Shown: positions 2 to 35,068 of the stretch, piece after piece
Position numbering within the stretch: the first letter of the stretch is position 1
Layout of the letters: each line of letters starts with the position of its first letter
IMG/VR virus record: IMGVR_UViG_3300047551_002099
Span: 1 to 64,000 of that record
Direction: 5' to 3' (one strand)
DNA: 64,000 nucleotides
Source of the DNA: a virus
The notes under the pieces: model-generated
What the model was told of the DNA's origin: nothing
What the model saw: the letters and a program-made list of their open reading frames with translations, nothing else
Databases searched by the model: none
Position numbers and translations under genes: made by a program

Positions 2-3000
2 GTTGTCTTTCCTTTCTATCTTTGTCGGCAGTGTCTGGGTTAGGTAGTTAAAGGAGTTAGCATACTGCTCTTGCTTGTCTGCTAAGAACTGGGCCTTGGC
101 GGCCACCGCGGCTTCTTTCTCAACTATCTTCTGCTGAGTTTCTTGAATCTTCTGCTGCTTGACGGCGATTTTAGCCTCTTCCCGGGCGATAGCTTCTTCT
201 TTTCTGGCAATACGCTCGTTAAGTTTAGTTAGATAGTGACCGTGTTTTACTTCCTCCGCGGCTATCTGCTGCTGTTTCTTATCAATCTTGCCTTCTAAGA
301 TTTGAATGTAGCCAGTCTTATTCTGTATCCGGGACTCTAGGCTTCCTAATGTCCGCGAAGACACCCCGAAGCTTAGATAAGCATTCTGCCGGGTGACATT
401 CTCTGTATTCTGAACAAAAGCAATACTCCGGTCTAGATTAGCAAGGCGGCGGCGGGCTAACTTAGTGGACTCCATTAACTCAATTTGAGCACTAGACCTA
501 ATTGTGTTAGCAGCTTCTGCTTGCTGCAGTTGGGCTAAACGAAGTTGCGCTGGGAGCTGCTCTTGTTGCTCGATGAACCGTTTCAGGTTAGCTAAGACTC
601 CCGCTACCGCGCTGGGGTCTTCTTGGGAACCTAGATTATCTAACTGGGTTAGAAGTTGTTGTGCCTGTTGAGCTTCTGTGCTGGTAGCCGGTAAGTTTGT
701 TAAGAAGTCCCGCAGTCGCTCCATTTCTGTGCGGACAGTCAACTCGAACATCACCCGACCGCGGAAGCCCCCAGCGGTAAGTAGTTTGAAAGACTCAACT
801 TGGTACTTCATTTCTTTATCTGCTGCTGCACCCAGTCGTTTGATTCCGTCGCCGGAATCAACACCAGCCGCCCGCAGAATTCGACTACCCAAGCCGACTT
901 CTTCCATACCCACTAAGAAGCTGTTGACCGCTATATAAGACGTCCCACTCATCCCCAAGCGGTTAGCGGTGGCCTGACGGATGCTGTTCTTGTTATGAAC
1001 TAAGTCAATCGCTGTTTCCTTACTTTGGTGCATTAACACCTGTAGCTCTTCGATGTCCGCCAGCTGTTCATTAGTTAGGTCGGTAGTCTGGCCCTTCAGC
1101 GCGTTGAACTGAATCCGGTCGATAACTGACTGAGTCTTCTGTAGTTTGGCAATCAGTCTGTACTGAGCTTCCAGCGCCGGATGACTTTCAGAGTTAAACA
1201 GTAGACTCATCTTCTGAAGGATATCCAACCCAAGAATAACCCCGGTTTGAACTGAACGCTCCGCACCGGTGCGGACTGTCGTTTTACCAGTGAATCTTGT
1301 GCCACCGTCCGGGTCTGCTTCCTGCTTATATCGGTCTAGAACAACAATGCTAGGTAAGCTAATAAAGCGGCTGGTTTCTACCGAGCCCATTAATGACTGA
1401 GCCCGTGTTAACTTAGCCTGGAGTTCAAGGCGGATAGTTGGGTCAGTTTCAGTTTCAAGTAACTGTCTGAAGTACTGCTGTTGTTGCTTAGCAGAGGCAT
1501 GCAGTGTTTCCATACCTTCCAGGTACTCAGCGCCCGTGTTATTTCGGAAGGTATTGACTATCCGCTGATGGATAGTATCCCGTTGGGTTTGAGCGTAGTT
1601 ACCAGCTCCAATTTGTCGGGCTTCATTGAAACTAGCTCCACTCTGCATTGCCAGAATAATCTGTTTCTGTAAGCCAGCCTCTTCCCGACTGAGTTGGCTT
1701 AATGTAATAGCCTGTTGACTTCCTAAATCGACTCGGGTTCTGCTTCGGTAGATTGAGTCTAGAAACTCAGTCATATCAAAGTCTTCGCCTAAGGACACTC
1801 GTTGTTGGTAGTCGTCTTGAGCTAACTGACGAACGGCTTCTACAATAGTTTCGGTGTTAGTCCCAGCAGACCGTAGTAAAGCGCCGCGCTCGATTTCCGC
1901 TAAGACTAAGTCAACCCGTTGGTTAATGTTCTGTTCATAGTCAAGATTGTTGCCTAAGTTATGCCGAGTTAAGTCGGCGTACCTAATCATATTTTGTAGA
2001 CTTTCAAAGTGCCTGCCATCATTAATGTATTGACTACCTAAACCAACGTAGTCATGCACCGCTGCTACACCCACCGGTCGAACTTCTACAGCACCTAAGC
2101 GGTCGATGTGACCAGGCACTTCATGTCTACCAAAGCTGGTGTAATTAGTTAGGAAAGTCGTGGCAAAGTCGTAGGCTGATGCTTGATAGATTTGCGGGCC
2201 AGCTGCTAAAGCACTTTTAGCAGCTCTTGTATTGCGTAAAAGCCCCATGGTTGTATACTCTAGTTGCAGAGTTCTCAAGTCATTTCTTAACTCTAAGTCG
2301 TTTACAGTTCTGGTACTATCGGGGTCAATAGCCCGCTCCTGCTCTAAAAGTTCCTTCTGCATTACAAACTGTAAAGCAGCGTTATCCCCTAAGTTCTGCA
2401 TTTGCAAGTTGTATTTAGACGCTACTTTACGCTGGCTCGGCACGGAGTTTTCGTAAATAATGGCTAAACTAACCAAGGCTTGTTGGATTGTTCCAACGTC
2501 CTGAGCGTCTTTGGGGTTGTAAGTGTAAGTAGATAACTGCTTAGCTGTTAACCCCTGGGCGTAGTGGCCCTCCATAGCTGTAATATTCTTCATCCCGGTG
2601 GGAACGGTTAGTTTACCTGGCGTATACTCCCCGGGTAACTCAATCATCCGTTGAGTTTGGATGTAGGCTCGGATGGCGCTGAAGACTGCTTCGACTTCTC
2701 TGAGTTTGCGTTCTTCTTCAGGGGTTACACTTTCGCCCCGCTTCACTCTTTCTAAGATGTGCTTAATTTCTTTATCGTCGGGCAGGCTATAACCGAAACG
2801 TCTGGCGATTTCTTCAATCCCGGTGCCTAACTTCTTACCTAGCTCCCCAAAACGTCCGTACATTTCCAGAGCAGTGTAAGTTGCTAAGTTGTGGTCTTTA
2901 CCATATTTGAGCAGTCGACTTTCGCCGTCTTCTCCGTAGGCGGTTAACAACTGCTGGATTTGGGTGTTGTCTAAGTTAAGGTTATTAAGTTTTTCAATCA

Positions 3001-6000
3001 GACTGTCTGTTTGAAGGTCTTGACCCGTCCGCTGCGCTGCCAAGTTTGTTCTGAGTGCTGGGGCTAAACGGGATTTGAAAAGATTAAATTGGGGGTTAGT
3101 GATAAACTGCCGGAAGTCTTGTTCCGCGCTAGGCCCCCGGAGCTTTAAATCTATATATTGGTTGATTTGCTCTGTGTTCCAGCCGGCGTTCTGTGCAGCC
3201 TGCACCAAGACATCTTTGTAGGCCTTCGTTAACGGATGCGCTTCCACTTGTAGCATCTGGGTTAGGGTATCAACGTTGAAGTTTGATATTCCAAACTGAG
3301 ATTCTAAGTTACGTAATTCTCCTTTCAACCGGTTCTTAACATTGTCATCTTGAGAGGTTAGCGTTTCAGTAAGCTTGTTAACGTAGGCTTCAACTTGGTT
3401 ATCACCAATGGCATTAAGACGGTCAGTGTATCCTGTTAGGTCAGTACCCGCAGTCTGCCCTAGTTGTCTAACTAGTTCTGTAGCTTCATGGCGGCGCAGC
3501 GTGGTTCTTAGTTGGTCAATACTATCTTCCTGTTGTGGCATTAAGCTTGACAGGGTATGCAGGTAGGCATTGTACTCGCTGGTGGTATCACTAGGGTCGT
3601 AGCTACCTGTGAAGATACTTTGGTTAGAAAGACTAACTTCTGCCAAGCCCGCGCTTCTGAGCCGGTCAGTAACATTAACATCTCGATAGACATCTTGGGA
3701 TGCTTTTAGTAAGAAGGCCAGCAAACCTACTGGGCGGCTTCCAAAGTCGTCTAGGTGACTGTAGATATTGACGCTTTCATCTTCGCCGGCTTCGTTTGTA
3801 TAGGCATACTCGTCTGTTTTAAAGGAGTTTTGGAACGCCCCTCGGAATAAACTAACCGCACCGGACTGTAACCTTGACCGGGCTTCTTGAGCGCTAGCGT
3901 CGTCACCTAGAGCTATTCTTACTTGAAGGGCCAAGGCTTCTTGAAGACTTCGTCCGGCTAGCAAACCAGGGTCTACCAGTGCCGCCAGGCTACCAAAGTA
4001 ATCCAGACTAGAGTCTAAGTCAGCGGCAATCCCGGTTAAGGGCTGGCCCTGTTGATTAGGATTAGCTGCGTTTCTAACACGCAAGGCCTCTGCATATTGA
4101 GCCCGGCTGCCGCCGTCGCTGTACTGACTGCCCCGCAAGCTTTGCTCTAACGCTCCACGAAGGCCACTAATATCACTCAAGTCTTTGCGGCTTAATAAGA
4201 GCATAGCCAACGCTTCGGCAACAGCTCGGCCCCCGCTGACAGTTCCTTCTGCTTCTGGTCGGTTAACCAATTGGTAAATACCACTTTGCTCTTTCTCTTC
4301 AAGTAGTCCTAACCCCATCTCAAAGTTAAAGCCCTTAATTTGGCTGCTGGATAGCATAGCAAAAACATCTTGGGCAGCAACCCGGCGGGGCAGCAAACTC
4401 TTAGTTCCTTCTGTAAAGCCATCTATGGCTTTCCAGAACTCTGCTTCTGCAGACCGCATTGGCCCTTTTGCTGTTTGTAAGCCACCCCGTATACCTTCTT
4501 TAAAGTCTTTTAGGGTCTGTAGGTCTAAATCTAAAATGACGGTATTGCCGGTGTTCACCGTTAAATGCGCTTCACTTAGAACGCTGATAGCCGGGCCTAG
4601 TTCTCTGGCGGATACCGCCGGGATACGGAACATCATCGGTTTAACCCGACCGTCACCAGTTGTAGTGCTGTAGTTAAACAGGTCGTTAATTGTGAAGGTT
4701 AACCCTTGACCACCTTCTGAACCAATTAACTCCCCGATCAGAGACATAGACTCGATATAGTTAAGTTTGCCTAGCTGACTGTTACCCAACTCGTCTCTGG
4801 AGCCAGGACTGTAGACACCTTTTTTGTAATAGAAGTTGACGTTGTCTAAACCCCGTCCGTACTCTATTTTGATGTTCCTGAACTCTTCTTTCAGTTCTCT
4901 AAGGGAGTCCATTACCAATCGTTTTGCTGAGACGGCATCTAAGCCAGTATCTTGCTGAACCGATTCGATATAGTTGGTTAGGTTTAGGTCGCCCGCGGGG
5001 ATGTTGCTTAAATTAGGAATGTTTTGGTACTGAGTAAAATAGGTTGTTTGAACTTGCAGGTTCAGTCTTCTTTTGAGTTGGTTTACGACACTGCTTTCTG
5101 TGACTAGTAGGTCTTTGGCTAAGAAAATAGTGCCGGGTTTGAGCTTTTCATTAATAACCTTGTTAAGCGCACTGGGGCTTGCGATAAAGCTATCCAAAGT
5201 GCTGGTGGCTTGAACAACGTGGGGTTGGACATAGCTCAAGGCATACTGGTCTTCCTTATTGTCTCTGAAGTTAGCGTTTAGCATCCCATAGTCACTTAAC
5301 TGGGATGCCCCGGCTGCTATTACTAATCGCCGTGGTGCTACGCCGCCCAAGTAACCTTTAGTAATCTGCTTTTGGTCTACTGTCCATTCTTTAGCGATAG
5401 TTCTAAGTAGACGAGTGTCTATGTTGGCATCACTTAACATCTCCGCAGGGGTAAGGAGAGTATCCGGGTTGTTCTGCTGGTAGCGACTGACGTATTCTTC
5501 CCGCAGGGCTTTGTACTGCTGTGCCGTTAGCGTCGAAAAGATGTTGCCCCCTAAAGAGTCAACCGAGCGGCTGGGGTCGTAGTCAAGGTCTGCCCCGAAG
5601 CTCATGGCATATTTAACAAACTCCGACGAAGCATTAAAGATAGGCCGGGTAGAAGTCAGGTTCTTCATCCGTTGACTAATCTGCTCAGACTTAGCAAAGG
5701 GGAAGAAGTAGATTAGCTCATCATCGGAGTCATAGGCTTCGCCTAACCCGGCGGCCTTCTCGGCTTTAGCTCTATACCGGCTGAAGCTAGCTTCAGCTAG
5801 CTGTTTCGCTGAGGTAAGGGCTTGTCTGTTGGTATACCCAGCTTGCTTTAAAGACTTAAATACCTGTAGAGTATATTCTCTTCGTTTAGTAATTCCTAGA
5901 CCTGGCATACTCTGCATTAAGCCTTCTAGTTCATGCACGACCGGTGCGCCACCCTCTAGTTTTAACAATCCACCGTAACGGGTATAAGAGTCTTGGAACT

Positions 6001-9000
6001 TTAACCGACCGGAAGACGCAACCGCCCGCAGGTACTGACCTGAGTACGCCCCTAGGGATTCCCCGTGCATTAAAGCATACGGACTCATAATAAAACCAGT
6101 ATCGTCCTGGTCTCGGAGGATGCTGTAAGCGTTATTGATGTATTGGTCTTCGCCGTAGCCAGGTAATCGGAAGAATCCCTGCCCATGGGAAAAGCCAGTT
6201 TCGTGGGGTTGGGAGAAGATGTCTATTTGGTTACTGAAGGACTCTTTCTTACCCTTTTCAATCTCTGACTTGTAAATAGAGGCAAGCGTTGGATTCATTT
6301 CAATGGCCTGCATAATCAGGTCATTGTAGAGCCCAGTAAAGTTATTCTGTCCTGTCACCCAGTTACCTAAGTTAAGGCTGGTGTTTACTTGGGTAACCAA
6401 CTGACTGGTAAAGCGGTCAACAATAGCGCCAATGTTCTCAGGGGTTGCAGTGTTTTGTGTAGCAGCGTTTGTGATACCTGTAATTAACTTATTGACGGCT
6501 TCGTTCATTTCGGTCAGCCGTTGGTGTGCCATCCCTGTTGTGTTAGCAATATTAGGGCGATAACCGGCGTAATCCCCGATAGGAGTCGCTAGCAGAGAAG
6601 TTAACTGGGTCTGAAGCTGTTGTCTAATTTTCCCTCTGTTTCTTGCGTTCGCGGTGCTTAATTGGTTAGCTAATAACCCCGCGACTTCGTACAAGTCATT
6701 GGTACCACCTTCTGCAACGGGCGTACCCCCAGCACTCAATATCTGGTTAATGGACGTGCCAACGTACTGTCTTAGTGTGCCGGCAAAAACGTCTTTCTCC
6801 ATCATGCCGTAGGTGGCGTACATACCACGGACTTGATACTCGTAACGCATAGCGTGGTAAGTCGTGTTAATTAACCCACCTAAGACATCAAAGGCATTGG
6901 CTTGATAAGTTTCACCATGCTTCAGGGCAATTTCATTTGTTGCGCCTGTTTCTTCGTCATAGACTTTATAGACCCGATTTTCGCCAGTGGCGTTTTTATA
7001 GACCATCCCAGCTATTAACCGCTGGGACTTATTAAGGTAAACAACAGGTTGCATACCGTCAGGGCCTTTAGCGTTGACTGTCCGCTCCGCGCCAAAGGTA
7101 ACATCAAAAGAATACCCTGCTTCATCGCCTAAGGGATTAGCGATTTGAATCTTAGCGCCAACAACCCTAGCGCCGCCCTGCCCAACTAGATACCGTCGGC
7201 TGAAAATAAATTTCTTACCTTTAGCTGCTTTAGAGTCCCAACTAGTTGCTTCAACCCCTCCCATAGACCTTAAGAAGTCAAAACCGTCCCGTGCGATTTC
7301 TTCTCTGCCCCGCTGCTCGATCAGCAACCCTTGGTAGTCTGACCGTTCTTTAAAGAACCGGCTGTAACCATAAAAGTAAGACTGCTGAATATCCCGTTCT
7401 GTCTCAGCATCTAATATATTTAAAGTGTTGTAAGATGACTCACTTTCAAAGATAGCCATCGTTTCAATATTCTGCCTGTTCGCTCCGGCGGAGATGTTAG
7501 ACGAACCAATACCATAAGCTTTGAGTTGGTTCCTCGAGTCTAAAATAGCAAACGATTTACTATGTAAAAACTGGGACGGCATGATAGAAAAAGCGTTGCT
7601 TTCTAGCAGGGAAGTTACCAAATCATACCGTTCCCGCTGCGCGTGGGTTAAACCTGTGGTATCTTTTATTGCTCCCATCCGGTAGTAGTTGTCAAGTAAC
7701 CTAAATAAGCCTTGACTTTCAACATGACTAGTACTAGTTAACGCGATGCTTAGTTGACCACTGCTGGCTAGGTTTTTCAATGCTTCAAAACCTATTTGAC
7801 CAACACCAAAGGGTGACCCACCCAGTTGGTGGGACTTCTTCCTGGGGTCAAGGGCTGATTCTAAATACTGTATTGAAAGGATAACCTTCTGGTCGCCGCT
7901 GCTAGCCGCGCTTTCTAATTTACTGGCTATCTTAGTGTGAATCTCTTCGTTCACAAATAAGACTCTAGGCCCATTTAGCACTCCCAGTTTCTGTTCGTAG
8001 CGTGTTCTGAACTCGGTTCTAGTAGCTTCTGGATTTTGCCGGCTGCTGGTTTGAAGCTCCAGTAAACTATCTACTGCCGCTTTTGTTTGTTGGGCTAATA
8101 TGTCAAAAGCGTTTCTATCCCTAGCAGTATCCCGGTTTAGCAGGAGCATCTCTTCAATCGTTGTCGAGCGGTCTAGTGTAGAAGTCCAGTTTTGGGTACC
8201 GATAAAGATTTTACTGATTGCTCCTACAGCGTCGTCTTTTTCATTATCTTGTTCATAGAAGTAACCTAACTTCGCGTGAATCTGGCCCCGCTGTTGAAAG
8301 ACAGGCACAACTCTAGCGGGCCCTTGGTTATAAAGTTCAGCCGTTCGAGCGCTTAAGTCATTACCTGCTAAAATCCCGGTGGCGGTAGTTGGCATAGACG
8401 AAGAATCTAAAATGTCGGTGTAGCCCTGGGTACCGACTTGGGTTGGCCCGGTTCGGTTTAAGACTCCAGCTAACGCGGTTTTAGACTGTAGTTGGTAAAC
8501 AAAGCCTTTGAAGCCTAAGCCACTGTTTTCTTGGCTGGTCAACATTGAGTAGACGTCTAACCCAGTAGGCCGCATAATAAACCCACTGGAGCGGGTTACC
8601 CCCTGCTGGGATGTGCCTGTTAACCGAGCCGGTTCGGCATAGTTGTCTGTTTGTCTTACCAAACTTTGGTTAATCTCTGGCATAGCCGCAACTAGCTGCC
8701 TAGCCCCGTACTCTACTGCGCCTCTTAGACCTTGTCTTAAGTACTCTGGTTCATACGAAGGCGGACTGTTTAAACGACTGTTGGTGTCGACCGCCAGTGC
8801 GTCTAGGTTAGCCGGACGGGGGCTATGCAGCCGTTCATAGTCTTTGGTGAACCGACGGGCGTAGTTCTCAATCCCCTTGAAAGGGTCAGTTGCATTAGTA
8901 TGAAAGTCTGTCCAAAACGATCGGGCAGCATCATGCTCAGCACTGCTCCCACCGCTAACTGCTGCGCTGGTTCTAATCCTATGGCTGACCTCTGGATATA

Positions 9001-9217
9001 ATTCAGCATAGGTTTCAAGTTCAATATCTTCTAAAAGGCTTTTAGGGACGGTCTCCCCAGTTGCGTCCTCGATAGCGTCGTAAAGTTCATCGATAAAGCC
9101 GTTGTAGTCAAAAATCCGTAAGGCGCGCTGTGTGATAAGCTGCCTAATATCCGCGCTGTACTCACCTTTTATTAGATATTCGTATAAACTCTCTCTGTTA
9201 GTAACGTTAAGCGGCAT
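2..9217 (-). CDS. Giant virion protein (>3070 aa, runs off left edge): N-terminal tandem PLD/HKD domain plus putative fused beta/beta'-like two-barrel RNA polymerase; in tape-measure gene position
   Basis: Hand translation: ATG at 9217 (MPLNVTNRESLYEYL...), upstream in-frame stop at 9241-9239, frame still open at position 2; absence from the ORF track is consistent with no stop in the window. HKD-type motifs IHAKLGYFYE..IFIGTQNWT (about 8280-8180) and LHSKSFAILD..GIGSSNIS..NIE (about 7565-7460). RNAP-like motifs at about 6100, 5330, 4500 and 1006-875. The ORF is well supported; the function is inferred. Confidence 0.85.
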   Translation of the reverse strand, partial: MPLNVTNRESLYEYLIKGEYSADIRQLITQRALRIFDYNGFIDELYDAIEDATGETVPKSLLEDIELETYAELYPEVSHRIRTSAAVSGGSSAEHDAARSFWTDFHTNATDPFKGIENYARRFTKDYERLHSPRPANLDALAVDTNSRLNSPPSYEPEYLRQGLRGAVEYGARQLVAAMPEINQSLVRQTDNYAEPARLTGTSQQGVTRSSGFIMRPTGLDVYSMLTSQENSGLGFKGFVYQLQSKTALAGVLNRTGPTQVGTQGYTDILDSSSMPTTATGILAGNDLSARTAELYNQGPARVVPVFQQRGQIHAKLGYFYEQDNEKDDAVGAISKIFIGTQNWTSTLDRSTTIEEMLLLNRDTARDRNAFDILAQQTKAAVDSLLELQTSSRQNPEATRTEFRTRYEQKLGVLNGPRVLFVNEEIHTKIASKLESAASSGDQKVILSIQYLESALDPRKKSHQLGGSPFGVGQIGFEALKNLASSGQLSIALTSTSHVESQGLFRLLDNYYRMGAIKDTTGLTHAQRERYDLVTSLLESNAFSIMPSQFLHSKSFAILDSRNQLKAYGIGSSNISAGANRQNIETMAIFESESSYNTLNILDAETERDIQQSYFYGYSRFFKERSDYQGLLIEQRGREEIARDGFDFLRSMGGVEATSWDSKAAKGKKFIFSRRYLVGQGGARVVGAKIQIANPLGDEAGYSFDVTFGAERTVNAKGPDGMQPVVYLNKSQRLIAGMVYKNATGENRVYKVYDEETGATNEIALKHGETYQANAFDVLGGLINTTYHAMRYEYQVRGMYATYGMMEKDVFAGTLRQYVGTSINQILSAGGTPVAEGGTNDLYEVAGLLANQLSTANARNRGKIRQQLQTQLTSLLATPIGDYAGYRPNIANTTGMAHQRLTEMNEAVNKLITGITNAATQNTATPENIGAIVDRFTSQLVTQVNTSLNLGNWVTGQNNFTGLYNDLIMQAIEMNPTLASIYKSEIEKGKKESFSNQIDIFSQPHETGFSHGQGFFRLPGYGEDQYINNAYSILRDQDDTGFIMSPYALMHGESLGAYSGQYLRAVASSGRLKFQDSYTRYGGLLKLEGGAPVVHELEGLMQSMPGLGITKRREYTLQVFKSLKQAGYTNRQALTSAKQLAEASFSRYRAKAEKAAGLGEAYDSDDELIYFFPFAKSEQISQRMKNLTSTRPIFNASSEFVKYAMSFGADLDYDPSRSVDSLGGNIFSTLTAQQYKALREEYVSRYQQNNPDTLLTPAEMLSDANIDTRLLRTIAKEWTVDQKQITKGYLGGVAPRRLVIAAGASQLSDYGMLNANFRDNKEDQYALSYVQPHVVQATSTLDSFIASPSALNKVINEKLKPGTIFLAKDLLVTESSVVNQLKRRLNLQVQTTYFTQYQNIPNLSNIPAGDLNLTNYIESVQQDTGLDAVSAKRLVMDSLRELKEEFRNIKIEYGRGLDNVNFYYKKGVYSPGSRDELGNSQLGKLNYIESMSLIGELIGSEGGQGLTFTINDLFNYSTTTGDGRVKPMMFRIPAVSARELGPAISVLSEAHLTVNTGNTVILDLDLQTLKDFKEGIRGGLQTAKGPMRSAEAEFWKAIDGFTEGTKSLLPRRVAAQDVFAMLSSSQIKGFNFEMGLGLLEEKEQSGIYQLVNRPEAEGTVSGGRAVAEALAMLLLSRKDLSDISGLRGALEQSLRGSQYSDGGSRAQYAEALRVRNAANPNQQGQPLTGIAADLDSSLDYFGSLAALVDPGLLAGRSLQEALALQVRIALGDDASAQEARSRLQSGAVSLFRGAFQNSFKTDEYAYTNEAGEDESVNIYSHLDDFGSRPVGLLAFLLKASQDVYRDVNVTDRLRSAGLAEVSLSNQSIFTGSYDPSDTTSEYNAYLHTLSSLMPQQEDSIDQLRTTLRRHEATELVRQLGQTAGTDLTGYTDRLNAIGDNQVEAYVNKLTETLTSQDDNVKNRLKGELRNLESQFGISNFNVDTLTQMLQVEAHPLTKAYKDVLVQAAQNAGWNTEQINQYIDLKLRGPSAEQDFRQFITNPQFNLFKSRLAPALRTNLAAQRTGQDLQTDSLIEKLNNLNLDNTQIQQLLTAYGEDGESRLLKYGKDHNLATYTALEMYGRFGELGKKLGTGIEEIARRFGYSLPDDKEIKHILERVKRGESVTPEEERKLREVEAVFSAIRAYIQTQRMIELPGEYTPGKLTVPTGMKNITAMEGHYAQGLTAKQLSTYTYNPKDAQDVGTIQQALVSLAIIYENSVPSQRKVASKYNLQMQNLGDNAALQFVMQKELLEQERAIDPDSTRTVNDLELRNDLRTLQLEYTTMGLLRNTRAAKSALAAGPQIYQASAYDFATTFLTNYTSFGRHEVPGHIDRLGAVEVRPVGVAAVHDYVGLGSQYINDGRHFESLQNMIRYADLTRHNLGNNLDYEQNINQRVDLVLAEIERGALLRSAGTNTETIVEAVRQLAQDDYQQRVSLGEDFDMTEFLDSIYRSRTRVDLGSQQAITLSQLSREEAGLQKQIILAMQSGASFNEARQIGAGNYAQTQRDTIHQRIVNTFRNNTGAEYLEGMETLHASAKQQQQYFRQLLETETDPTIRLELQAKLTRAQSLMGSVETSRFISLPSIVVLDRYKQEADPDGGTRFTGKTTVRTGAERSVQTGVILGLDILQKMSLLFNSESHPALEAQYRLIAKLQKTQSVIDRIQFNALKGQTTDLTNEQLADIEELQVLMHQSKETAIDLVHNKNSIRQATANRLGMSGTSYIAVNSFLVGMEEVGLGSRILRAAGVDSGDGIKRLGAAADKEMKYQVESFKLLTAGGFRGRVMFELTVRTEMERLRDFLTNLPATSTEAQQAQQLLTQLDNLGSQEDPSAVAGVLANLKRFIEQQEQLPAQLRLAQLQQAEAANTIRSSAQIELMESTKLARRRLANLDRSIAFVQNTENVTRQNAYLSFGVSSRTLGSLESRIQNKTGYIQILEGKIDKKQQQIAAEEVKHGHYLTKLNERIARKEEAIAREEAKIAVKQQKIQETQQKIVEKEAAVAAKAQFLADKQEQYANSFNYLTQTLPTKIERKDN

Positions 9218-10630: not shown

Positions 10631-12106
10631 ATGGCGACTTCCGGCGACATTAACTACCCAGACAAGCGTTCCGTCAGAAAACAGACTCAACAGCAAGGTC
10701 GCTACAATCTTTACAACGCGCTGCGGCGGCCATTAATGTCAAAGCTGCGGCTTTACGAACGGATGGCCCGCCAGGATTTGACTATCCGGTCTGCTTTAAA
10801 CACCCGGGTGGATTCTATTATTGGTACTATTGGTGATGTGATTCACCCGGACAAAGAAATCCAAGAATTCCACCGGGATAACCTCAAGCGGCTAGAGGAT
10901 GGCACTGGTAAAAACTTTAAGTCTTGCTTGCGAAATATTCAGTTTACTACCGACTGGGCTGGATTTTCGGTGTCTGAAGTCTGCTATTCCTTTGACTTTG
11001 GGTCTTTACATGTCGAAGACATTCTGACGTACCACCCGTCTACCTTGGTAATCTACCCTAATAAAAAGGGCCTGTTGGTGGATAACCAGGAAACTATGGA
11101 CGGCTACCACAAATCAGGTATCTATCAGTACGCAATTAACTTCGCGCCCGCTGAGCAACATCTAGATTTGTGGAAGCACATCTACTTAGGGCGGGATTGC
11201 GACTACGGTAACTACTACGGACACTCGTTAGTGGCCCCGGCTTATAAATGGTTCCGACTAAAAGAAGTGCTAATTGAGATGATGATTAGCGCTATGAATA
11301 AGCTAGGCACCAGGCTACTGTGGGTGCGGTCGCATAACACTCCAACAGAAGAGTTGGTGCTTAACCCAGCTACCGGCGAAGAACGTCCGCTCACAACGCT
11401 TGAGTTAATCCGCAACCAGATAGAAATGAACGAAGGGGCTATTGACACCTTGGTTCTACCTCAAGTATCCCCCGACTACAAACCCGAAATTGGTTCGGTG
11501 CAGATGTCAGATAACTTTGGGGATACGTTTCTTAACACCCTCGCCTACGTTGACCAAGAGTCCGTCCGTCACATCATTCCTTACTTCTTGTTGATGGACA
11601 CGGATTCTAACGAATCAGCCCGTGAGCGCCGGATGGAAATCTACTTTAATGATGTCTACAACCAACGGGAAGCTCTAATTAACGTTGCTGTTCAGAAAAT
11701 TCTAATGCCGTTGCAGACCTGGAACTTTAACCGCGCGGCGGCCAAGATTCCTCCCACCTTTGCTCGTATCTTTTCTGACCGACCGGAAGATCGTGTAGCA
11801 ACGATGCAGATGGTTACAGGTCTTACTGAAACAGGCTACTTGAATCCGACTAACCCGATGGATTGGGGAATGGTTCGGGAGATGGTTCGCTTGGCAGGTC
11901 GGGAAATGACTGAAGCTGACCTGAAGTTTATTAACGAAGTGGTCATTGAACCCCTTCAAAAACCAGAGCCAGCTGCGGGTGCAGCTACAAAAAAGCCAAC
12001 AGCCGGGCGGCCTAAAGGAGTTTCCAAACCTTTAAGCACTCGTTCCCCGGCTAAGCCCGCCAGCAGCGGCTCCACTACTAAGAAGAACCTTAAGCAAGGA
12101 GGTTAA
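10631..12106 (+). CDS. Portal protein (Mu gp29/DUF935-like)
   Basis: 491 aa; motifs LYERM..D..IRSAL..R, WAGFSVSEV.Y, GNYYGHSLV..AYKWF..K typical of this portal family; first gene of the head cluster. Confidence 0.85.
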   Translation: MATSGDINYPDKRSVRKQTQQQGRYNLYNALRRPLMSKLRLYERMARQDLTIRSALNTRVDSIIGTIGDVIHPDKEIQEFHRDNLKRLEDGTGKNFKSCLRNIQFTTDWAGFSVSEVCYSFDFGSLHVEDILTYHPSTLVIYPNKKGLLVDNQETMDGYHKSGIYQYAINFAPAEQHLDLWKHIYLGRDCDYGNYYGHSLVAPAYKWFRLKEVLIEMMISAMNKLGTRLLWVRSHNTPTEELVLNPATGEERPLTTLELIRNQIEMNEGAIDTLVLPQVSPDYKPEIGSVQMSDNFGDTFLNTLAYVDQESVRHIIPYFLLMDTDSNESARERRMEIYFNDVYNQREALINVAVQKILMPLQTWNFNRAAAKIPPTFARIFSDRPEDRVATMQMVTGLTETGYLNPTNPMDWGMVREMVRLAGREMTEADLKFINEVVIEPLQKPEPAAGAATKKPTAGRPKGVSKPLSTRSPAKPASSGSTTKKNLKQGG

Positions 12107-13614: not shown

Positions 13615-14670
13615 ATGCCACTATCTATTGAACTTAAAAATGATAAGGAACTACTGGCAACAGACACTGTTGCTGGTAAAGAGTACATCAAAGCACCAAT
13701 TGCCCGTTTAGGTAAATGGAAACATGAAGCTTACGGTCGGGTTGAATTCTCCCAAAAAGACTTTGATGATATTACCACTAACTGGAAAAACAACGCTGCT
13801 GGATTTGAGCCTCCACTCTACCTAGGTCATCCCCGGAATGACAAGGCGTGGAGCGGCGCGCCTGCCGTTGGGTTTCTAGAAAACGTAGTTCAGGAAGGAG
13901 ATACTTTGTTTGGGCTTTACGAGCCGGTAGACAAAGAAGCCTTTGAGGAAGTTAAGAAGGGCCAGTACCGTTATGCTAGCTCCGAAGTTTATCGGAATGC
14001 TAAAGATAAAGAGACGGGTGCTGTGATTGGTACGCTGTTGACAGCCCATGCGTTAACAAACGAACCCTACTTGACTAAACTGCCGCGGGTGGAAGTAACC
14101 GAGAAGCTTGAATTTAGCAATCCTATTAACACTACTCGTTTTGTATTTTCTCAAGAATCAGCTACCTGTACAAAAGAGGTAGTAACTATAAATGCTATGA
14201 CACAAACCACCGAAGTTACGTCAGAAAAAGACACTGCTGCGCACGAACAGTTCGTGCAGCTGCAACACGAAAACGAAACCCTGCGACTTGAGCTTTCCGA
14301 TAAGAACAAGCAACTCGCAGATCTACAGGACGCTGTCGCTGCCATCAAACAAGAACTTTCCATTCATACCGAACGCGCCAAGAAGCAGGAACTTTCTGAC
14401 AAACTGGCCCGGTTGAATAAGCTGAATGTTTCTGCCGCGACCAAAGAGAAGTATTCCCAACTCTTTGCGGAAGGCACCCTTGATGCCACTGGTGAAGAAA
14501 ATATCTTTTCTTTGTTGGAAGAGTTATCTGCTGGTAACGTCCAAAAGTTCACCGATGTTCAAGGTGTTCAAGAAAAGTCTGAAGAGACCGCTGTTGAAAA
14601 CCCTTACTCAGAAACTATCCTTAAGCTCGCTGAGCGCGCCAAGGAGCTAGGTCGTGAATTTGTAATCTAG
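13615..14670 (+). CDS. Prohead protease / scaffold (Mu gpI-like)
   Basis: GKWKH, PPLYLGHP, APAVGF, GQYRYASSE, AHALTNEPY motifs of Mu-like protease; coiled-coil C-terminal scaffold; directly upstream of capsid gene. Confidence 0.85.
   Translation: MPLSIELKNDKELLATDTVAGKEYIKAPIARLGKWKHEAYGRVEFSQKDFDDITTNWKNNAAGFEPPLYLGHPRNDKAWSGAPAVGFLENVVQEGDTLFGLYEPVDKEAFEEVKKGQYRYASSEVYRNAKDKETGAVIGTLLTAHALTNEPYLTKLPRVEVTEKLEFSNPINTTRFVFSQESATCTKEVVTINAMTQTTEVTSEKDTAAHEQFVQLQHENETLRLELSDKNKQLADLQDAVAAIKQELSIHTERAKKQELSDKLARLNKLNVSAATKEKYSQLFAEGTLDATGEENIFSLLEELSAGNVQKFTDVQGVQEKSEETAVENPYSETILKLAERAKELGREFVI
14241..14257. promoter_or_regulatory. Palindrome GCACGAAC-A-GTTCGTGC (copy 1 of 3)
   Basis: Perfect inverted repeat with 1-nt centre; same 15-bp core at 25004 and 45286. 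Confidence 0.6.
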
Positions 14671-14710: not shown

Positions 14711-16003
14711 ATGCCTCAAGAGTTTCACCCCGAGATTACAGATTACCAATATATTGGCGACTTGCCTGCCCTTGGTAGTCTACAGCTAACTAAGCTAGCC
14801 CGCGGATTTGAAGTGGCGGAGATTGGTCAGTTGGATGACCTGTTCCCCAGCCAAATGATTAACGAACGGACTATCGTCATCGAACAAATCATCGAAGGTC
14901 TGGGTATTATGCCCTTGGCTCGCTTTGGTGTTCCTGGTGGCGGCTTTATTGAGCCCGACCGGATTCGTTCGATGCGCGTCACCCCGGCGGTCGTTCGTGA
15001 AGAAGATTTCATCGAGCAAGCGCTCATCAACCAACTCCGCCAGCCTGGTACCTTCAACCAGCAATGGAGCCCGACTCAGATCATTCAACAACGGGTACAA
15101 AAACTTGTTAACCGTCACCGCCGTACCGTTGACCTCTTCCGTGCCAAAACCCTACTGGGCGGCATCAGCTACACCGACCCTCGGACAGGTGTCAGCATTG
15201 ATGTCAGCACCAACATTCCTGAGCATAACCTGTTCTCTTATAAAGGCTGGAATGCTGCTGTCGCTGCTGGTACCGTCGTTAACGGCTTTACTGCTGACTC
15301 AGCGCTGACCAATGATAAAGGACGACCTGAAGCCTTCTTCTTCCGGTCTACTGACGAGCGCTTCGGTGTACCTTGGACTGACCCCAAAGCTGACCTGGCC
15401 TATACGATTCGTATGATTAAGCAGTATCTGCTCAATACGAACAAAAACCAGTTCACTGAAATCATCATGCACTCTGACTTGATGACTGTTCTGCAAGAGA
15501 ACAACCTAGTCAAGTCTTTCATGGGTCTACCCTACGCCCTTAACACCACTGGCACCCAAGCGGCCTACACCCCCGCCAACAATATGCCTCCCTCCAGTTT
15601 CCTGGTACTCGGCCCCGGCGGTGACTTAGCGTCCTTAGGTGGTCTACGGATTCGTGTGGTTAACGGGCTGTACCGTAACCCCGTCACTAACCAGATTGAA
15701 AACTGGTGGCCTGCCCATAAGGTAGCTATCGTAGCTCCGACTCACATGAATGACTCCAGCGCTCGGTTGGGTCTAACTCAACACTGCGTCGGTGAATCTG
15801 AAGACGGACAACCCGGTGTTTACATGCGCGTCAGCCCCATGAGCGCACCCCCGGCACCTCCCGGACGGGTAATGCAAATGGGTGATGCCTTCTTACCCTT
15901 TGCTATCTATCCCCACTGGATTTGTCTGCTGGATGTTTGTGAGCCTGATGAACTCAAAACCAAGATCATCCTACAAGCTGACCTGAACTATGGAACGTTC
16001 TAG
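14711..16003 (+). CDS. Major capsid protein (HK97 fold, capsid-E-like family)
   Basis: 430 aa after the protease, AAGGA ribosome-binding site; LDDLFP, LLGGISYTD..IDV, W.DP.AD and terminal LP.AIYP..I.LLDV patterns of the major capsid protein E family. Confidence 0.85.
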   Translation: MPQEFHPEITDYQYIGDLPALGSLQLTKLARGFEVAEIGQLDDLFPSQMINERTIVIEQIIEGLGIMPLARFGVPGGGFIEPDRIRSMRVTPAVVREEDFIEQALINQLRQPGTFNQQWSPTQIIQQRVQKLVNRHRRTVDLFRAKTLLGGISYTDPRTGVSIDVSTNIPEHNLFSYKGWNAAVAAGTVVNGFTADSALTNDKGRPEAFFFRSTDERFGVPWTDPKADLAYTIRMIKQYLLNTNKNQFTEIIMHSDLMTVLQENNLVKSFMGLPYALNTTGTQAAYTPANNMPPSSFLVLGPGGDLASLGGLRIRVVNGLYRNPVTNQIENWWPAHKVAIVAPTHMNDSSARLGLTQHCVGESEDGQPGVYMRVSPMSAPPAPPGRVMQMGDAFLPFAIYPHWICLLDVCEPDELKTKIILQADLNYGTF

Positions 16004-20571: not shown

Positions 20572-23500
20572 ATGGTAGATTACTCATTTCCGAACATTTC
20601 CTTCAACTCTAAGGTTATTGGCCCCGCACCTGTTAACCCCGGCTGGCGCGATAAATATGCCATTATCGGTGAGTTTGACCGTGGCCCTGTTGTACCTGTT
20701 CAGTCTGCAGACCGGTCTGTTTTAGCTTCCCTCTACGGGGAAGATACCAGCTCTGGTTCTATTGCACTGCAGCAGGCGATGCGCCAAGGTGCTACAAACG
20801 CTGTTGTAGCCCGTGTCGTACCCAATAGCCTTCCCTCCCAACTCTATTTTGAGATTGCTGGCGACAGCCTTTTTGTTCAACCCTCGACGGGTTACGAAAG
20901 CGCAATCGCCAACACCAACGTATTAGATACGTTTAATTACACCACCGGTTTCAAGTTCACTCTGGATTACATCGGTGAACCTAACTTTGTTAGAACTGCT
21001 TATGGCGACATCAGCAGCCGTAACCGCCCCATCGACCACCCCACCTTCAACGGTCGGGCTCAGATGAACTACATGGTTACGCGTGTACAGTCTGCCGACG
21101 CTGCCCAACGAGTTGTTTACGAAGATAGCAACGAGGTTCTTGAAGTTACTCTTCACAACAGCAGCCGCGACGACTACCAACTCGTTACTTTCGAAGAAGG
21201 TAACAACGTTTACGTTGAGCAATACCTAAAGCCCGGCTTTACCCTGCGCTCTTCCACTAGCGCTCAACAAGAAGGTCTTGTGATCGCTTGTGAACCCTAC
21301 GAATATAGTGAAGGGGTAAAAGCTGTTCTGGTTAAAGGTCACTACAGCCCGGCTAACGCTTACAGCGGCGCTGTTGTTACAACCAGCGGGCTTTACAACG
21401 TTACGGTTACTGACTTTAAGAAAGGGTCTAACGTAAACAGCCCCACCCTATCTATCCTGGCTCAATCGGTTGCCCTGGTTGGTGGCAGCGCCTATGAAGT
21501 TAGCGCCGCTGTTAACAACGGTGGGAACATTGATGTCACCTTAGCAACTAATGTAACCGGCAGCGCTAAAGAAGACGCTCCTGTTTCCTTTGTTCCTAAG
21601 GTCACCACTGTCACCTACGACTCGGTTGATAAAGTTACCGATATTACCTTGACTGGTGTCTTGGCTAACACGGACATCGCTGTTGGCAGCAAGCTAACCT
21701 TTAGTGCTAAAGATGCTTCTTACACTGTTTCGGCTATCAGCACTGCCTGGTCTTCCGGCACTGTTACTGTCGAAGTAGAAGGTGACGTTCGCGCTGGTGT
21801 CAAAGTCAAAGACTACGCTTTGGTAACGACCGCTGATTCCAACGAACAGTTAGACACCTTTAAAGTTCACTTCCCGTCTGTCACGCAGTATATTCTGGGT
21901 TACAGTCTCCGCTCCTTTGACAACAGCGCGCTGCAGTCCCGGTCTACTAGCCGCTCCTATCTGACGATTGGGTCGTCTGCTACTAAACCAGTTCGCTACT
22001 TCGATGGTTTTGTGAACTACGCTGTTGATGCTTGCCTAGTCTTCCAAGAAGGTGACGGTGGTGTTTATCATAAGATTCCTTACCTGACCGGTCTGAAGAA
22101 CCTACAAGAAGCCCAGCTTCTTGAGCGGGAGTACTTTGGGCTTGAGCTTTACTTTGGTCGTCCCAATGACCGTAAAGTTTACCTAGCTGAAACCACCATC
22201 TTTAACATTCCGCTTGTTAAGAGTGAAGCGGTAATCGGCGGTGAAAGCGGCAGTGAAACGGCTTACCCGAAAGGAACCCTGGCAACAACGATTCTTCGTG
22301 ACCTTGAGTATGCTATCTACGGTGACCCGGCCATGGCGTCCATGGTTAAGGACATCAAAGTAGATATTACGCTGCTGCCCTTTAAGTTCAGCGGGGAAGC
22401 TTCTTTTGTTGGCGTTAAATCCAACCGCCTGCGCTGGAACTTGGAACGTTATGTTGCCGGCCCTAAAGCGGTTTACTCTTCTAAGTCTGGGGCTGTACTG
22501 ACCTTTGACGCGGTGCCTGATATTATCCTGGGCAAAGAAGACGACTACAGCGTCATTATCGACGGTGTTGCCTACCCCCTGACCGCTGCGTCTTCTACTA
22601 CAGTTACTGTAGACGTTGATGATCTAAGCGTCCTGGATATTCTATCCACTGGTGACGAACTGGAGTTCCGCTCCCAAGTTCAGACCAAAGATATCCTAAT
22701 CCGTCGTCAGCCTGAAGTTGACTTCGACACTCTAGACTACGGGCTAGACAAGTTCTATCCCTTCATCAACGGTCGGGATACGGCTTCCCACGCCTACGCT
22801 GATTTCTACGCACTGAATGGTAAATCCCTGATTCGCGTCGTTGCTTTAAACCCTGGTATTTACGGCAACAACATTAAAGTCAGCATCGTCCCCGATGAAG
22901 TTACCGTTAATAGCGCTAAGTTCTACCTACAAGTAGAAGACACCAACCCTGGTGTGATTCTTGGTGGGCCTAAAACTGAACTGTGGTACCTAGACAACCG
23001 GGAAATTGACCCTGAAACTGGCGCTTACCTGTCGGTTAAGCAGTCGAACCTAGTTCGCGCTTACTTCCTACCTGTAATCGAGCCGGTTAACGTTAGCGAC
23101 TTAATCAACACGATTGATGAGTCTCTGTTCCAAGGGCTGCCTCTGCGGATTGCACCACCTTTAGAAGTCCAAGATTCGGCTTATGCCTCTGGTATCACCC
23201 GTGTCACTTCCCAAGGGGGCTCTTTCATCCGTAATGTTACCCTCTCTGGTGGAACTGAGTTTGTTGACCCTGCCCCTGACGCGGCTATCCGCGCTCGCCG
23301 GGATGGTTACCTAGCTGCTCTCCGCTCTCTGGAAAAAGAAGATGTTGCTTGGATTGCTATCGCTGGCATCTACTACGGCGACAACGACTACCAAGAAGTC
23401 TTTGACGAGCTAAAAGCGCAGTGTGAACGCGCCACCACCTTGAACGGCCTCCGTCGCGGTGTTGTGAGCCTGGCTCCTAATGTGTCTCCCCGTCAAGCCT

Positions 23501-24168
23501 CTGTCCTCCGTGACCGGATTAACAGCGACAAGATTGTTCAAATTGCTGGTTCTATCCAAGGGGTTAACCTGAACGGTCAGATTTACCAAACTCAAGGCGC
23601 TACTGGCATCTACGTTGGTCTCCGCTGCGCCCGTCCGCCCCATATCTCTACCGCTTCTACCTACAGTGGTGGTTACGCCGAAAACGTAAGTTTCAGCAAC
23701 ATCAAATCTTCTCCTGATGTGTTAGACGCCTACACCCGCGGCGGTACGGAAGTGCTCTTCTACGATTCCGGTCTGAAGCTCTTTAAGTTCTTGAACGGGA
23801 TTACCACCAGCCGCGACCCCAACAAGAAGTATGTATGTGTGCTTGAAGTTTGGGACCAAATGAAGCACGACCTTTACAACTACTTGCAGTACGTCCGGTC
23901 TGAGCCCAACACTCGCGACCTTCAAAAACGGGTTGCCTCTTCTGTAGATGCTTATCTACAACAGAAGTACCGCGACGACTGGTTCATGCGGATTGCTCCT
24001 ACGATCTGTGGGCCTGCTAATAACACCGAAGCCGATATGATTCGTGGCAAGCTGTTTATCACGGTACGGGCTACGCCTACGTTCCCTGCTGACTTCATTG
24101 TCGTTAACGACATTATGGATCTCAGCGAGACCTTCAGCTTTGAAACGCAGCCTATTAGTTCTTTCTAG
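20572..24168 (+). CDS. Contractile tail sheath protein (1198 aa, large central insertion)
   Basis: N-terminal AIIGEFDRGPV..P; ALNPGIYGNNIKVSI; LSGG; C-terminal SEPNT..L..RV..VDAYL, CGPANNT..GKLFITV..P..PADFIVV. Confidence 0.9.
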   Translation: MVDYSFPNISFNSKVIGPAPVNPGWRDKYAIIGEFDRGPVVPVQSADRSVLASLYGEDTSSGSIALQQAMRQGATNAVVARVVPNSLPSQLYFEIAGDSLFVQPSTGYESAIANTNVLDTFNYTTGFKFTLDYIGEPNFVRTAYGDISSRNRPIDHPTFNGRAQMNYMVTRVQSADAAQRVVYEDSNEVLEVTLHNSSRDDYQLVTFEEGNNVYVEQYLKPGFTLRSSTSAQQEGLVIACEPYEYSEGVKAVLVKGHYSPANAYSGAVVTTSGLYNVTVTDFKKGSNVNSPTLSILAQSVALVGGSAYEVSAAVNNGGNIDVTLATNVTGSAKEDAPVSFVPKVTTVTYDSVDKVTDITLTGVLANTDIAVGSKLTFSAKDASYTVSAISTAWSSGTVTVEVEGDVRAGVKVKDYALVTTADSNEQLDTFKVHFPSVTQYILGYSLRSFDNSALQSRSTSRSYLTIGSSATKPVRYFDGFVNYAVDACLVFQEGDGGVYHKIPYLTGLKNLQEAQLLEREYFGLELYFGRPNDRKVYLAETTIFNIPLVKSEAVIGGESGSETAYPKGTLATTILRDLEYAIYGDPAMASMVKDIKVDITLLPFKFSGEASFVGVKSNRLRWNLERYVAGPKAVYSSKSGAVLTFDAVPDIILGKEDDYSVIIDGVAYPLTAASSTTVTVDVDDLSVLDILSTGDELEFRSQVQTKDILIRRQPEVDFDTLDYGLDKFYPFINGRDTASHAYADFYALNGKSLIRVVALNPGIYGNNIKVSIVPDEVTVNSAKFYLQVEDTNPGVILGGPKTELWYLDNREIDPETGAYLSVKQSNLVRAYFLPVIEPVNVSDLINTIDESLFQGLPLRIAPPLEVQDSAYASGITRVTSQGGSFIRNVTLSGGTEFVDPAPDAAIRARRDGYLAALRSLEKEDVAWIAIAGIYYGDNDYQEVFDELKAQCERATTLNGLRRGVVSLAPNVSPRQASVLRDRINSDKIVQIAGSIQGVNLNGQIYQTQGATGIYVGLRCARPPHISTASTYSGGYAENVSFSNIKSSPDVLDAYTRGGTEVLFYDSGLKLFKFLNGITTSRDPNKKYVCVLEVWDQMKHDLYNYLQYVRSEPNTRDLQKRVASSVDAYLQQKYRDDWFMRIAPTICGPANNTEADMIRGKLFITVRATPTFPADFIVVNDIMDLSETFSFETQPISSF

Positions 24169-28000: not shown

Positions 28001-28276
28001 CGCTCAAATCCAGATACACCATACAGTCCACCAGAAGGCGTTGACGTTCTTACAAACCCTATCCCAGGTAAAAAGATAGTGATTTCTCCCAGCGGTACTG
28101 GACAGACTACCAACAGTGATTTTGCGCAGGCAAAGGAAAACAGAAACCAAGGGGTTAACTATATTACCTTTAAGCGGGAGCCGCCTTCGATGTGGCGGGT
28201 GGAAGGTGTTGTTGACCGCTTTATGGACGGGGTGCCTGGATACTATACCGAGTTGGCTTTACTAAGTTGCTTTTAA
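25091..28276 (+). CDS. Baseplate hub protein (gp27/gpD-like) with helical insertions
   Basis: 1061 aa; DEICIYGGY, ITVQCRDRLKYL, TGEFWY.PR, TVLGDPSFVPGEVIQV, WRVEGV..F..GYYTEL.L hub patterns. Confidence 0.7.
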   Translation: MSDSTNTPPAPTNNQPTERQQIKLQPRFPTDPLVLGAVCHQQQQAQYPVFAVTDLDDNIIFANFTEWKLTKARTNINRYWQSSTAFFQCTVELTDLAKLTPLWPAPVFRHQTTIPATSTAYTQGLSSEVKDELKKLVERFKKESQSFQNPTQGQELIDKLVKEASDDAKTAIADINTTDTSGGSIIYKLEQALDKAENSDPQQQQQQLAIDAAIAAFPLGSYDEICIYGGYLDRLRPVVSEDIKANRLLRKGVWSVDTITVSGSTPTGIIITVQCRDRLKYLMDTFGSYNTAESNELLVDKNDKPDNNNAIKRSQVILTLARRGIGEYKQQESIGGRFINSGVIYDISDAGNENTQSGNVLMDFDPYYMYNIDGGALLVSNGTVTQSNGQTSATSTNATIYNTNTPEGKAQLETALAELKAKAQAQADSEKDDADVQAKNAEIQALTPDTFMAYLDANGVKSGTNIGDINVSSAGSLRGSTANSPVAKEMVFNIVSGRVPYTTAADQYFGQNFIVADRVPLDYIRFLSQQEPWPTEVFQDSRTGEFWYAPRGLDLTGLSDKSRFFRTYYFRNWPNDLAQTTVAPSSNTQAQQAQQSEKLKELTEVRDALAQAIKDNAVTNALDQFESKYGARLDKLVGSNSNYNEALAKLDQLIKNEQQSSNTPAPASSTSTLSERADLDIRSATLVDVYKDISKALQENLNELSGFSGYINNTEEERGPYIRNLRSLSVEAANYMNVYKEEDYRIDIVKYREEVEGRDEKAVIETAERWAEELNVAIADGEKAKQELQKQEGVDELKAAQDKVIPDFGIAHPHPAQMIHTFREEVSSVSVRTNIIVQSHSPSTPDTITQILHLSVEPWFMKTRAYPCSFFTVTDDSAGTMSGDSTKRGALIALALSYARVIAKELRVSAATVLGDPSFVPGEVIQVIGSPMNPYALDPKSPYYWTEDRRQIVDMNRQYQGLANDLAVVARSNPDTPYSPPEGVDVLTNPIPGKKIVISPSGTGQTTNSDFAQAKENRNQGVNYITFKREPPSMWRVEGVVDRFMDGVPGYYTELALLSCF

Positions 28277-28279
28277 CCC

Positions 28280-31877: not shown

Positions 31878-31887
31878 AGTTTTTGGA

Positions 31888-34547: not shown

Positions 34548-35063
34548 ATGGCAGCTCTTAAACACCGGTTAGACGTCTACGACAACGTTATTGGCTCTGA
34601 TGTGAAGATAGCACCTCTAGGGGATTTAGCTTTAGACCCTTTAGACTCTGATTTAAGTGTCTTAAGTGGCTCTGAAGCGCTGGGAGCGGCGGTACGCCGA
34701 CGGCTGTCTACACCGCTTACTGGCTATGGTCGTATTGTTAAAACCGCTCGGGGCTACGAGTATGTAGACGCGGACTATGGTAGTACTCTATCTAACTTTT
34801 TATCTGCCCCGATTACAGACCTGGCGTTAGATGACGTTGTTGAAGTCGTCCAACAAGACGCAAGCAAAGACCCACGCTTAGCCCAAACAGCTGCAGCCAT
34901 TACAGAGGTCAACCAAAACGGCTACGCCATCCAACTTTACTACCTACCTAAAACGGTAGACGAGTTAATCGCGCAAGGACTTACTGTTGGTAATTACGCT
35001 GAAAACACAGTCTTTAGTGCGCAAGTTGCCACTAACTATTCTTTACTGTTACCGCTTTATTAA
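34548..35063 (+). CDS. Baseplate wedge / sheath initiator (gp25/gpW-like)
   Basis: GDL..LSG.EAL..AVRRRLSTP.G..DYGS.L..FL, DPR motifs. Confidence 0.85.
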   Translation: MAALKHRLDVYDNVIGSDVKIAPLGDLALDPLDSDLSVLSGSEALGAAVRRRLSTPLTGYGRIVKTARGYEYVDADYGSTLSNFLSAPITDLALDDVVEVVQQDASKDPRLAQTAAAITEVNQNGYAIQLYYLPKTVDELIAQGLTVGNYAENTVFSAQVATNYSLLLPLY

Positions 35064-35068
35064 GACCT

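Follow-up and report, generated by a model that had tools for sequence, protein, structure and literature searches.

The stretch of viral DNA analysed here (the window, 64,000 nucleotides) begins at base 1 of a linear IMG/VR record of 79,810 bp (IMGVR_UViG_3300047551_002099) whose completeness is judged to be 64%. At its left end it carries a giant open reading frame (ORF) on the minus strand, and the protein encoded by this ORF is the subject of the present work. The frame runs uninterrupted over positions 2-9217, starts with an ATG at 9217-9215 and comprises 3,072 codons. It is a real gene, but its 3' end is cut by the end of the contig and, with base 1 of that contig as the first letter of the window, the ORF is not extendable leftward. 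Since the full-length close homologues measure 4,505-5,310 residues, about 2,000 residues of the window copy are missing, and what the window holds is the N-terminal three fifths (about 60%) of a protein of some 5,000 residues, that is, its non-catalytic part. We believe, with a probability of roughly 0.6, that the giant protein is a virion-carried, single-chain, two-barrel RNA polymerase of a new family, in which a beta-like portion is followed by a beta'-like one.

Full-length relatives of the giant ORF were found by a word-indexed search, the closest being P0002 (54% identity over 3,028 columns). With the C-terminal region of a relative as the query, HMMER was run exhaustively on 1.84 billion protein representatives and yielded 22 of them, nearly all of 3,200-5,300 residues; an initial scan of viral contigs with the window protein alone had given no match. 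The loci of 20 family members, taken from viral and metagenome contigs, were then available for comparison. The giant ORF belongs to a rare family that adjoins the portal gene in Ma-LMM01-like freshwater myoviruses and, among cultured phages, a relative is present in the Microcystis Fukuivirus group only. In this group, ORF82L of MaMV-DC (L026, NC_029002.1 66652-77334), a 'hypothetical protein' of 3,560 residues encoded beside head and tail genes, belongs to the family as a distant member. It carries one of the family's catalytic-type loops (GDFDGDTF) and one HKD motif, and with a single cysteine in 3,560 residues it is almost free of this amino acid. However, the identity amounts to about 24% only, within a part of the C-terminal region, and the linker of this protein (see below) is shorter than that in the subgroup to which the window protein belongs.

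Tandem HKD (PLD-like) motifs are found towards the N-terminus, at 7538-8278 (minus strand, as are all the features of the ORF that follow). The first one, at residue 314, reads H-A-K and is followed by G-T-Q-N; the second one, at residue 552, reads H-S-K(x)5D and is followed by G-S-S-N. Both of the HxK(x)4-5D...G-S/T-x-N motifs expected for a PLD are present, and their histidines and lysines are invariant in the relatives (H295/K297 and H545/K547 in alignment A1). The corresponding Pfam match, to PLDc_2 (E = 3.7e-4, 20.8 bits), falls under the curated cut-off of 27 bits; the same match was obtained with relative P0005, and BFVD lists the Ma-LMM01 relative as 'PLD phosphodiesterase domain-containing protein'. 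PLDc_2 being the sole Pfam signal in the giant protein, an alternative reading has to be weighed, namely that we are dealing with an ejected giant multi-enzyme or scaffold that has other domains in addition to a nuclease or phosphodiesterase of the PLD type, but no polymerase. In that case, the DYDGD loop described below would be some other metal site and the RNA polymerase-like motifs would be chance likenesses selected by eye. We regard this as possible but rather unlikely, for reasons that are given with the profile and structure comparisons.

The next part of the protein contains a series of conserved blocks that were compared with the beta subunit of RNA polymerase. Block I (6050-6097, residues 1041-1056, of the type SPYALMHGE) is partly conserved and had been matched earlier to beta GRVCPIETPEG. 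Block II (5642-5716, residues 1168-1192), FPF-x-K-S-E-Q-I-S-Q-R...R-P, for which the earlier match was beta IPF..NMQRQ, shows invariant columns P174, Q180, R184 and R192 in alignment A5, and its motif is kept in the distant members. Block IV (5276-5332, residues 1296-1314) consists of a hydrophobic strand and then G-x-S-x-x-S-D-x-x-x-x-N, with G304, D310 and N315 invariant in A5; it is a candidate counterpart of the GYNxED....N/S with which the beta-type barrel begins. Block VI (4457-4498, residues 1574-1587), G-x-R-x(6)-K-G-P, in which R578, K585, G586 and P587 are invariant in A5, is a candidate counterpart of GDK....GNKG (K979/K987 in Rpb2). Finally, block VII (4295-4369, residues 1617-1641) reads SQIKGFNFE.GL.LLE, with K629, F631 and G636 invariant in A5. 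An hhalign match that would equate the KGFNFE block with beta GYNFE was rejected, because the glutamate varies in the family.

Between blocks IV and VI, an arrangement that matches the layout of Rpb2, there is an inserted beta-rich domain (4511-5230, residues 1330-1569) that was predicted with confidence (residues 331-570 of the model). In a second look with VIA-align, this domain aligned weakly to the wall (flap) domain of the second-largest RNA polymerase subunit of several lineages: yeast Rpb2 (854-971), human RPB2 (809-926), RPC2 (770-888) and archaeal B (751-867). Block IV lies 21 residues ahead of the wall-like domain, and D837 of Rpb2, which we take to be the acidic residue equivalent to the block IV position, 17 residues ahead of the wall. 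When the offset of the wall alignment is carried forward, R578 falls on Rpb2 K979, and K585 is one residue off K987. With regard to the catalytic-site residues of the beta-type barrel, one acidic and two basic (Rpb2 D837, K979 and K987), it is the invariant pairs D310/N315 and R578/K585 that flank the wall-like domain, a weak match whose boundaries agree. In a BFVD search, the top match was the Ma-LMM01 homologue and the second one a Pithovirus DNA-directed RNA polymerase (E = 7.8e-3). The wall-domain match, weak but positionally exact in the model, gives moderate backing to the beta-like assignment. A preliminary description of the window had already proposed a polymerase of this kind from a hand translation, and the beta-like part that it outlined gains in this way a weak wall-domain match between its ED-like and K..K-like motifs, but no support from sequence profiles.

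The beta'-like part begins with a conserved segment (segment 1; 833-1246, residues 2658-2795) that is readily recognised in relative P0014 (phmmer E = 8.9e-23 between both segments 1). It contains the IRQ block (881-988), I-R-Q-x(4)-R-x(4)-G-x-S-x-I...E-V-x-L-G, in which R, G, E, G and R are invariant in alignment A3 and which had provided the earlier reader with the best beta' match (FRQ..GKR..SGRSVI..QCGLP). Segment 1 gives way to a helical or coiled-coil insertion that is specific to the lineage and whose start (2-832, residues 2796-3072) is all that the contig contains; it is helix-rich and poorly conserved, with much E, K, Q, R, A and L. The gap that separates segment 1 from the RQGAP/DYDGD segment is of 35-130 residues in many relatives vs roughly 450-1,200 residues in the long-linker subgroup of the window protein (853 in the closest homologue). 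Beyond this gap, GDYDGD is invariant in the full-length close homologues (4/4), within a GLGDYDGDSFQAAL block, and R-Q-G-x-P (R-x-G-x-P) is invariant about 60 residues (59-65) before DYDGD. The distant family members retain GDYDGD or GDFDGD, the latter being the form of MaMV-DC ORF82L, and the invariant GD[YF]DGD[ST][FY] represents the strongest conserved block of the family. It is known that D-b-D-G-D is the signature of two-barrel RNA polymerases (PMC10770324, PMC9508822), and the full-length relatives carry this metal loop in the part that lies beyond the window. An R-x-P followed by D-x-D-x-D had been foreseen after the coiled coil, and the four homologues carry both elements there, the first one as R-x-G-x-P; the distance had been underestimated, as the relatives place the Asp triad about 700 residues past the window edge. 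As candidates for the bridge helix and trigger loop we noted LVKQ-x-RDTL and QQFLRDAALKPK, the latter about 375 residues after DYDGD, but neither block scored at the beta' bridge helix in blockwise hhalign or in our own profile scan.

In the giant protein the blocks follow one another in the order beta-like then beta'-like, and their spacing is close to that of the E. coli subunits: the beta-like landmarks stand at 1041/1168/1297/1575/1617 (556/667/809/1063/1095 in E. coli beta) and the beta'-like ones at 2679/2738/2773 (267/333/365 in E. coli beta'). The peptides from which the preliminary description had derived this colinearity were all located to within a few bases, at 6050-6097, 5642-5716, 5276-5332, 4457-4540, 4346-4369, 1142-1183 and 887-1006, and they fall among the most conserved blocks of the family, invariant residues included. 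One of them, quoted as LIYFPF, was rightly placed but actually reads LIYFFPF. On sequence statistics, however, the hand-picked colinear matches are indistinguishable from chance.

A number of results weigh against a polymerase, starting with the fact that the window lacks the catalytic half of the giant protein. When compared with Pfam, PHROGs and the PDB sequences, the window protein gave the weak PLDc_2 match only and no RNA polymerase; profile searches of the PDB with alignments A1, A4 and A5 returned only coiled-coil noise, and Pfam and PHROGs searches with all the members of A4 did not disclose a polymerase. Likewise, hhalign of A4 and A5 produced no match to E. coli beta and beta' or to alignments of 65 beta and 79 beta' sequences drawn from 80 genomes. 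Significant profile similarity to a curated family of the RNA polymerase superfamily was, in short, not found. When the family alignment was compared blockwise by hhalign, the top match fell at the predicted place for two of the nine places, corresponding to the DYDGD block (beta' 460-464, E = 0.015) and, weakly, to the IRQ block (beta' 344-358, E = 0.34), whereas blocks I, II and VII had no profile support for their beta matches (DIVLNP/PSRMN in the case of block VII), either in this analysis or in our own profile scan. In our own profile-profile scan, in which reversed decoys were used, DYDGD alone rose above background at its predicted place, and 5 of 210 windows scored equally high. The likeness of the quoted peptides to bacterial beta and beta' does not, therefore, exceed background in profile-profile tests except for DxDGD. 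Moreover, the Arg/Pro loop of the family is R-x-G-x-P, about 60 residues before the triad, vs the R-x-P of the canonical Pro-gate loop, located 35-45 residues before it (PMC9508822).

Structure prediction was carried out with AlphaFold2 for residues 1000-1900 of the window protein (17 sequences) and for residues 2330-3330 of P0014 (20 sequences), a relative whose linker is shorter (about 150 residues). The mean pLDDT (predicted local distance difference test score) was 63 and 56, respectively. The double-psi barrel that the earlier reader had hoped to see by this means was not recovered in either model, which also counts against a polymerase; every motif segment had a pLDDT below 50, and for this reason a barrel is neither visible nor excludable in these models. 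Foldseek against the PDB and wide VIA-align searches gave no meaningful match, the second VIA-align look at the beta'-like model disclosed helical hairpins only, and nothing usable was obtained from ESM Atlas look-ups. A predicted complex of the beta-like and beta'-like segments of P0014 with magnesium (interface score ipSAE, 0.01) gave no verdict either way.

These data bear on the alternative of an ejected PLD-type scaffold or multi-enzyme, which accounts well for RNA polymerase profile tests that are all negative except for a five-residue loop and for models that are mostly helical around DYDGD, at low confidence. It accounts less well for the exact D-[FY]-D-G-D signature being the most conserved element of the family, and for a wall-domain match that falls exactly between both predicted barrel motifs. 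Furthermore, the proven phage two-barrel polymerases (P23-45 gp96 and the crAss-like gp66) are equally invisible to sequence comparison, with no significant similarity beyond the DxDxD region (PMC10770324), so that negative profile results are expected under both readings. A polymerase fold is probable in our opinion, on the basis of an exact catalytic signature, of conserved residues that stand in order and of one weak but precise fold match.

The distribution of the motifs also allows another division of the protein, in which a compact two-barrel core similar to that of YonO or QDE-1 would be built around segment 1 and DYDGD, the coiled coil would be a clamp-like connector and residues 1040-1640 would be unrelated. 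The barrels of the known single-chain enzymes are split only by a clamp-forming connector, with a helix or loop after the catalytic barrel (PMC10770324), and in the giant family segment 1 and the DYDGD segment are set apart by a linker of variable length, and DYDGD is followed by a helical hairpin; in addition, the beta-like motif matches all fail the profile tests. We consider this division quite improbable, because only about 45 conserved residues follow the IRQ motif in segment 1, too few for a whole barrel, and because the IRQ block finds its best beta' match in the opening strand of the beta' barrel and not in a beta element. The wall-like domain between the invariant D..N and R..KGP also suits a beta topology.

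Further evidence comes from composition and gene position. None of 24 family proteins contains cysteine. Ten other proteins of the window contain 0.25-1.2% of this amino acid, and about 18 cysteines would therefore be expected in the window fragment. The first 6,010 residues of a second giant ORF in the contig are also free of cysteine. The giant ORF and the portal gene (10631-12106, +) are divergently transcribed, with the genes for the prohead protease (13615-14670, +) and the major capsid protein (14711-16003, +) nearby, and the adjacency to portal and head genes recurs in L003 and MaMV-DC, the relatives examined. The absence of cysteine and the position in the head module are compatible with a protein that travels unfolded through the tail; the virion proteins of this phage group are still to be examined by mass spectrometry (PMC9927357). 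For the injected RNA polymerase that had been proposed inside the giant protein, then, the lack of cysteine and the location in a structural module are favourable, but no profile method finds an RNA polymerase in it.

On the other hand, the tape-measure position that had been ascribed to the gene is wrong. The gene diverges from the portal gene, lies far from the sheath and tube genes, outside the tail module, and is not among the genes between the tail tube or chaperone and the baseplate hub. Giant size and long helical stretches could still suggest a tail tape measure protein, the more so since none is recognisable between the tube-like and baseplate genes (25091-34248). We find this hardly credible: the giant gene is upstream of the portal gene and transcribed away from it, its placement is the same in the relatives examined, and the second, larger giant ORF (45968-69568) is a better candidate for such a role.

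If the giant protein is the virion-carried polymerase that we favour, a Ma-LMM01-like myovirus would express it along with its virion genes, carry it in the virion and then eject it into the host. From the N-terminus, the predicted layout of the protein would comprise a tandem HKD/PLD-like domain (residues 300-600, approximately), a beta-like module (about 1040-1640) with the barrel residues D..N and R..K-G-P around a wall/flap-like insert, about 1,000 residues of other conserved domains, the first half of the beta'-like module (residues 2658-2795) and, after segment 1, the coiled coil specific to the lineage (roughly 450-1,200 residues). Past the contig end would come the R-x-G-x-P loop and the GDYDGD loop, the latter putatively binding Mg, followed by a helical hairpin and by a block, LRDAALKPK, that resembles a bridge helix. 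With respect to the cellular multisubunit enzymes (beta/Rpb2 then beta'/Rpb1), the order of the blocks is the same and their spacing roughly so, there is a wall/flap-like insert between acidic D..N and basic R..K-G blocks, and an FRQ..R..SG.S.I-like strand precedes the DxDGD loop. In contrast, the giant protein is a single chain that lacks significant profile similarity to those enzymes, its Arg/Pro loop reads R-x-G-x-P and not R-x-P, its two candidate barrels are over 1,300 residues apart, and the PLD and coiled-coil parts are extra.

Among phage enzymes, the closest parallel is gp96 of Thermus phage P23-45, a virion two-barrel RNA polymerase fused to a tape measure of 5,002 residues and with proven activity (PMC10770324). 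Both are phage proteins of about 5,000 residues that have a D-F/Y-D-G-D loop and no other detectable similarity to RNA polymerases, and both are proposed to enter the cell along with the DNA. However, no sequence relation was found between them. The polymerase of gp96 occupies the N-terminal 1,200-1,540 residues of a true siphovirus tape measure, whereas the motifs of the giant protein are spread over about 3,000 residues; the giant gene adjoins the portal gene of a myovirus; the giant protein has a PLD-like start and a huge coiled coil within its beta'-like module; and its activity is a proposal, in contrast to the demonstrated activity of gp96. The crAss-like phage phi14:2 encodes a virion-packaged RNA polymerase, gp66 (bioRxiv 10.1101/2020.03.07.982082; PDB 6VR4 as cited in PMC10770324). 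Similarly to the giant protein, gp66 is a large protein that is encoded among structural genes and was first recognised by its DFDxD loop, but it has about 2,200 residues, belongs to a podovirus-like phage and shows a QDE-1-like compact core, and our comparisons, Foldseek and VIA-align included, yielded neither a sequence nor a fold match between both proteins. The functional model that we propose, a giant packaged and ejected polymerase that would start transcription, is that of the virion RNA polymerase of coliphage N4. The N4 enzyme is a T7-like single-subunit polymerase, not a two-barrel one. It has about 3,500 residues, is packaged in the capsid and is ejected (PMC13434306).

Extended to the whole group, the hypothesis is that Ma-LMM01-type cyanophages and their freshwater relatives carry a sequence-orphan, fused beta-beta' RNA polymerase with a PLD-type nuclease, cysteine-free and of 3,200-5,300 residues, that is ejected with the DNA and starts a host-independent transcription. 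This would be the third independent lineage of virion two-barrel enzymes and the first in contractile-tailed phages; we give this wider proposal an even chance of being correct. It is at odds with published statements that deny an RNA polymerase to the Microcystis Fukuivirus phages (PMC9927357, PMC5780444). MaMV-DH01 has been described as lacking an RNA polymerase and depending on host transcription (PMC9927357), and in the Ma-LMM01 transcriptome all three temporal classes were assigned to the host sigma-70, the mechanism of the timing being left unclear (PMC5780444). In favour of the polymerase reading, PF00623, one of two canonical RNA polymerase families of Pfam, had no match in a set of five related records (completeness of at least 90% in three); PF00940, the other one, had no match in the related records either, but as it had none in the control genomes this result is uninformative. 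Should the proposal be right, the two proven cases (gp66 and gp96) would give far too narrow a picture of how widespread and architecturally varied virion two-barrel RNA polymerases are, the transcription programme of a bloom-relevant cyanophage group would need re-examination, and studies of polymerase evolution would benefit from the example of a fused beta-to-beta' enzyme that contains huge insertions. Because cultured relatives exist (Ma-LMM01, MaMV-DC and MaMV-DH01), the polymerase reading is directly testable. A phage-specific promoter motif, sought by a repeat search in the 80-kb fragment, was not found; the early region is probably missing from this fragment.

The remainder of the contig carries other genes of the virion and packaging modules. 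Between the tube-like and baseplate genes there are five consecutive ORFs (25091-34248, +) of 1,061, 628, 205, 365 and 786 residues that gave no Pfam match, and the baseplate wedge gene is found at 34548-36145 (+). The large terminase gene (43481-45262, +) is followed by the second giant ORF, which extends from 45968 to 69568 of the contig (7,866 codons) and whose first 4,000 residues had no match in PHROGs. The tail sheath (20572-24168, +) is unusually long, with 1,198 residues, and its match to the sheath family is limited to the C-terminal 450 residues. The collagen-like fibre gene (38728-41739, +) encodes a protein of 1,003 residues with long G-x-y repeats and many PHROG tail-fibre matches, and these repeats are visible at the DNA level as repeat families with a periodicity of 9 nucleotides.

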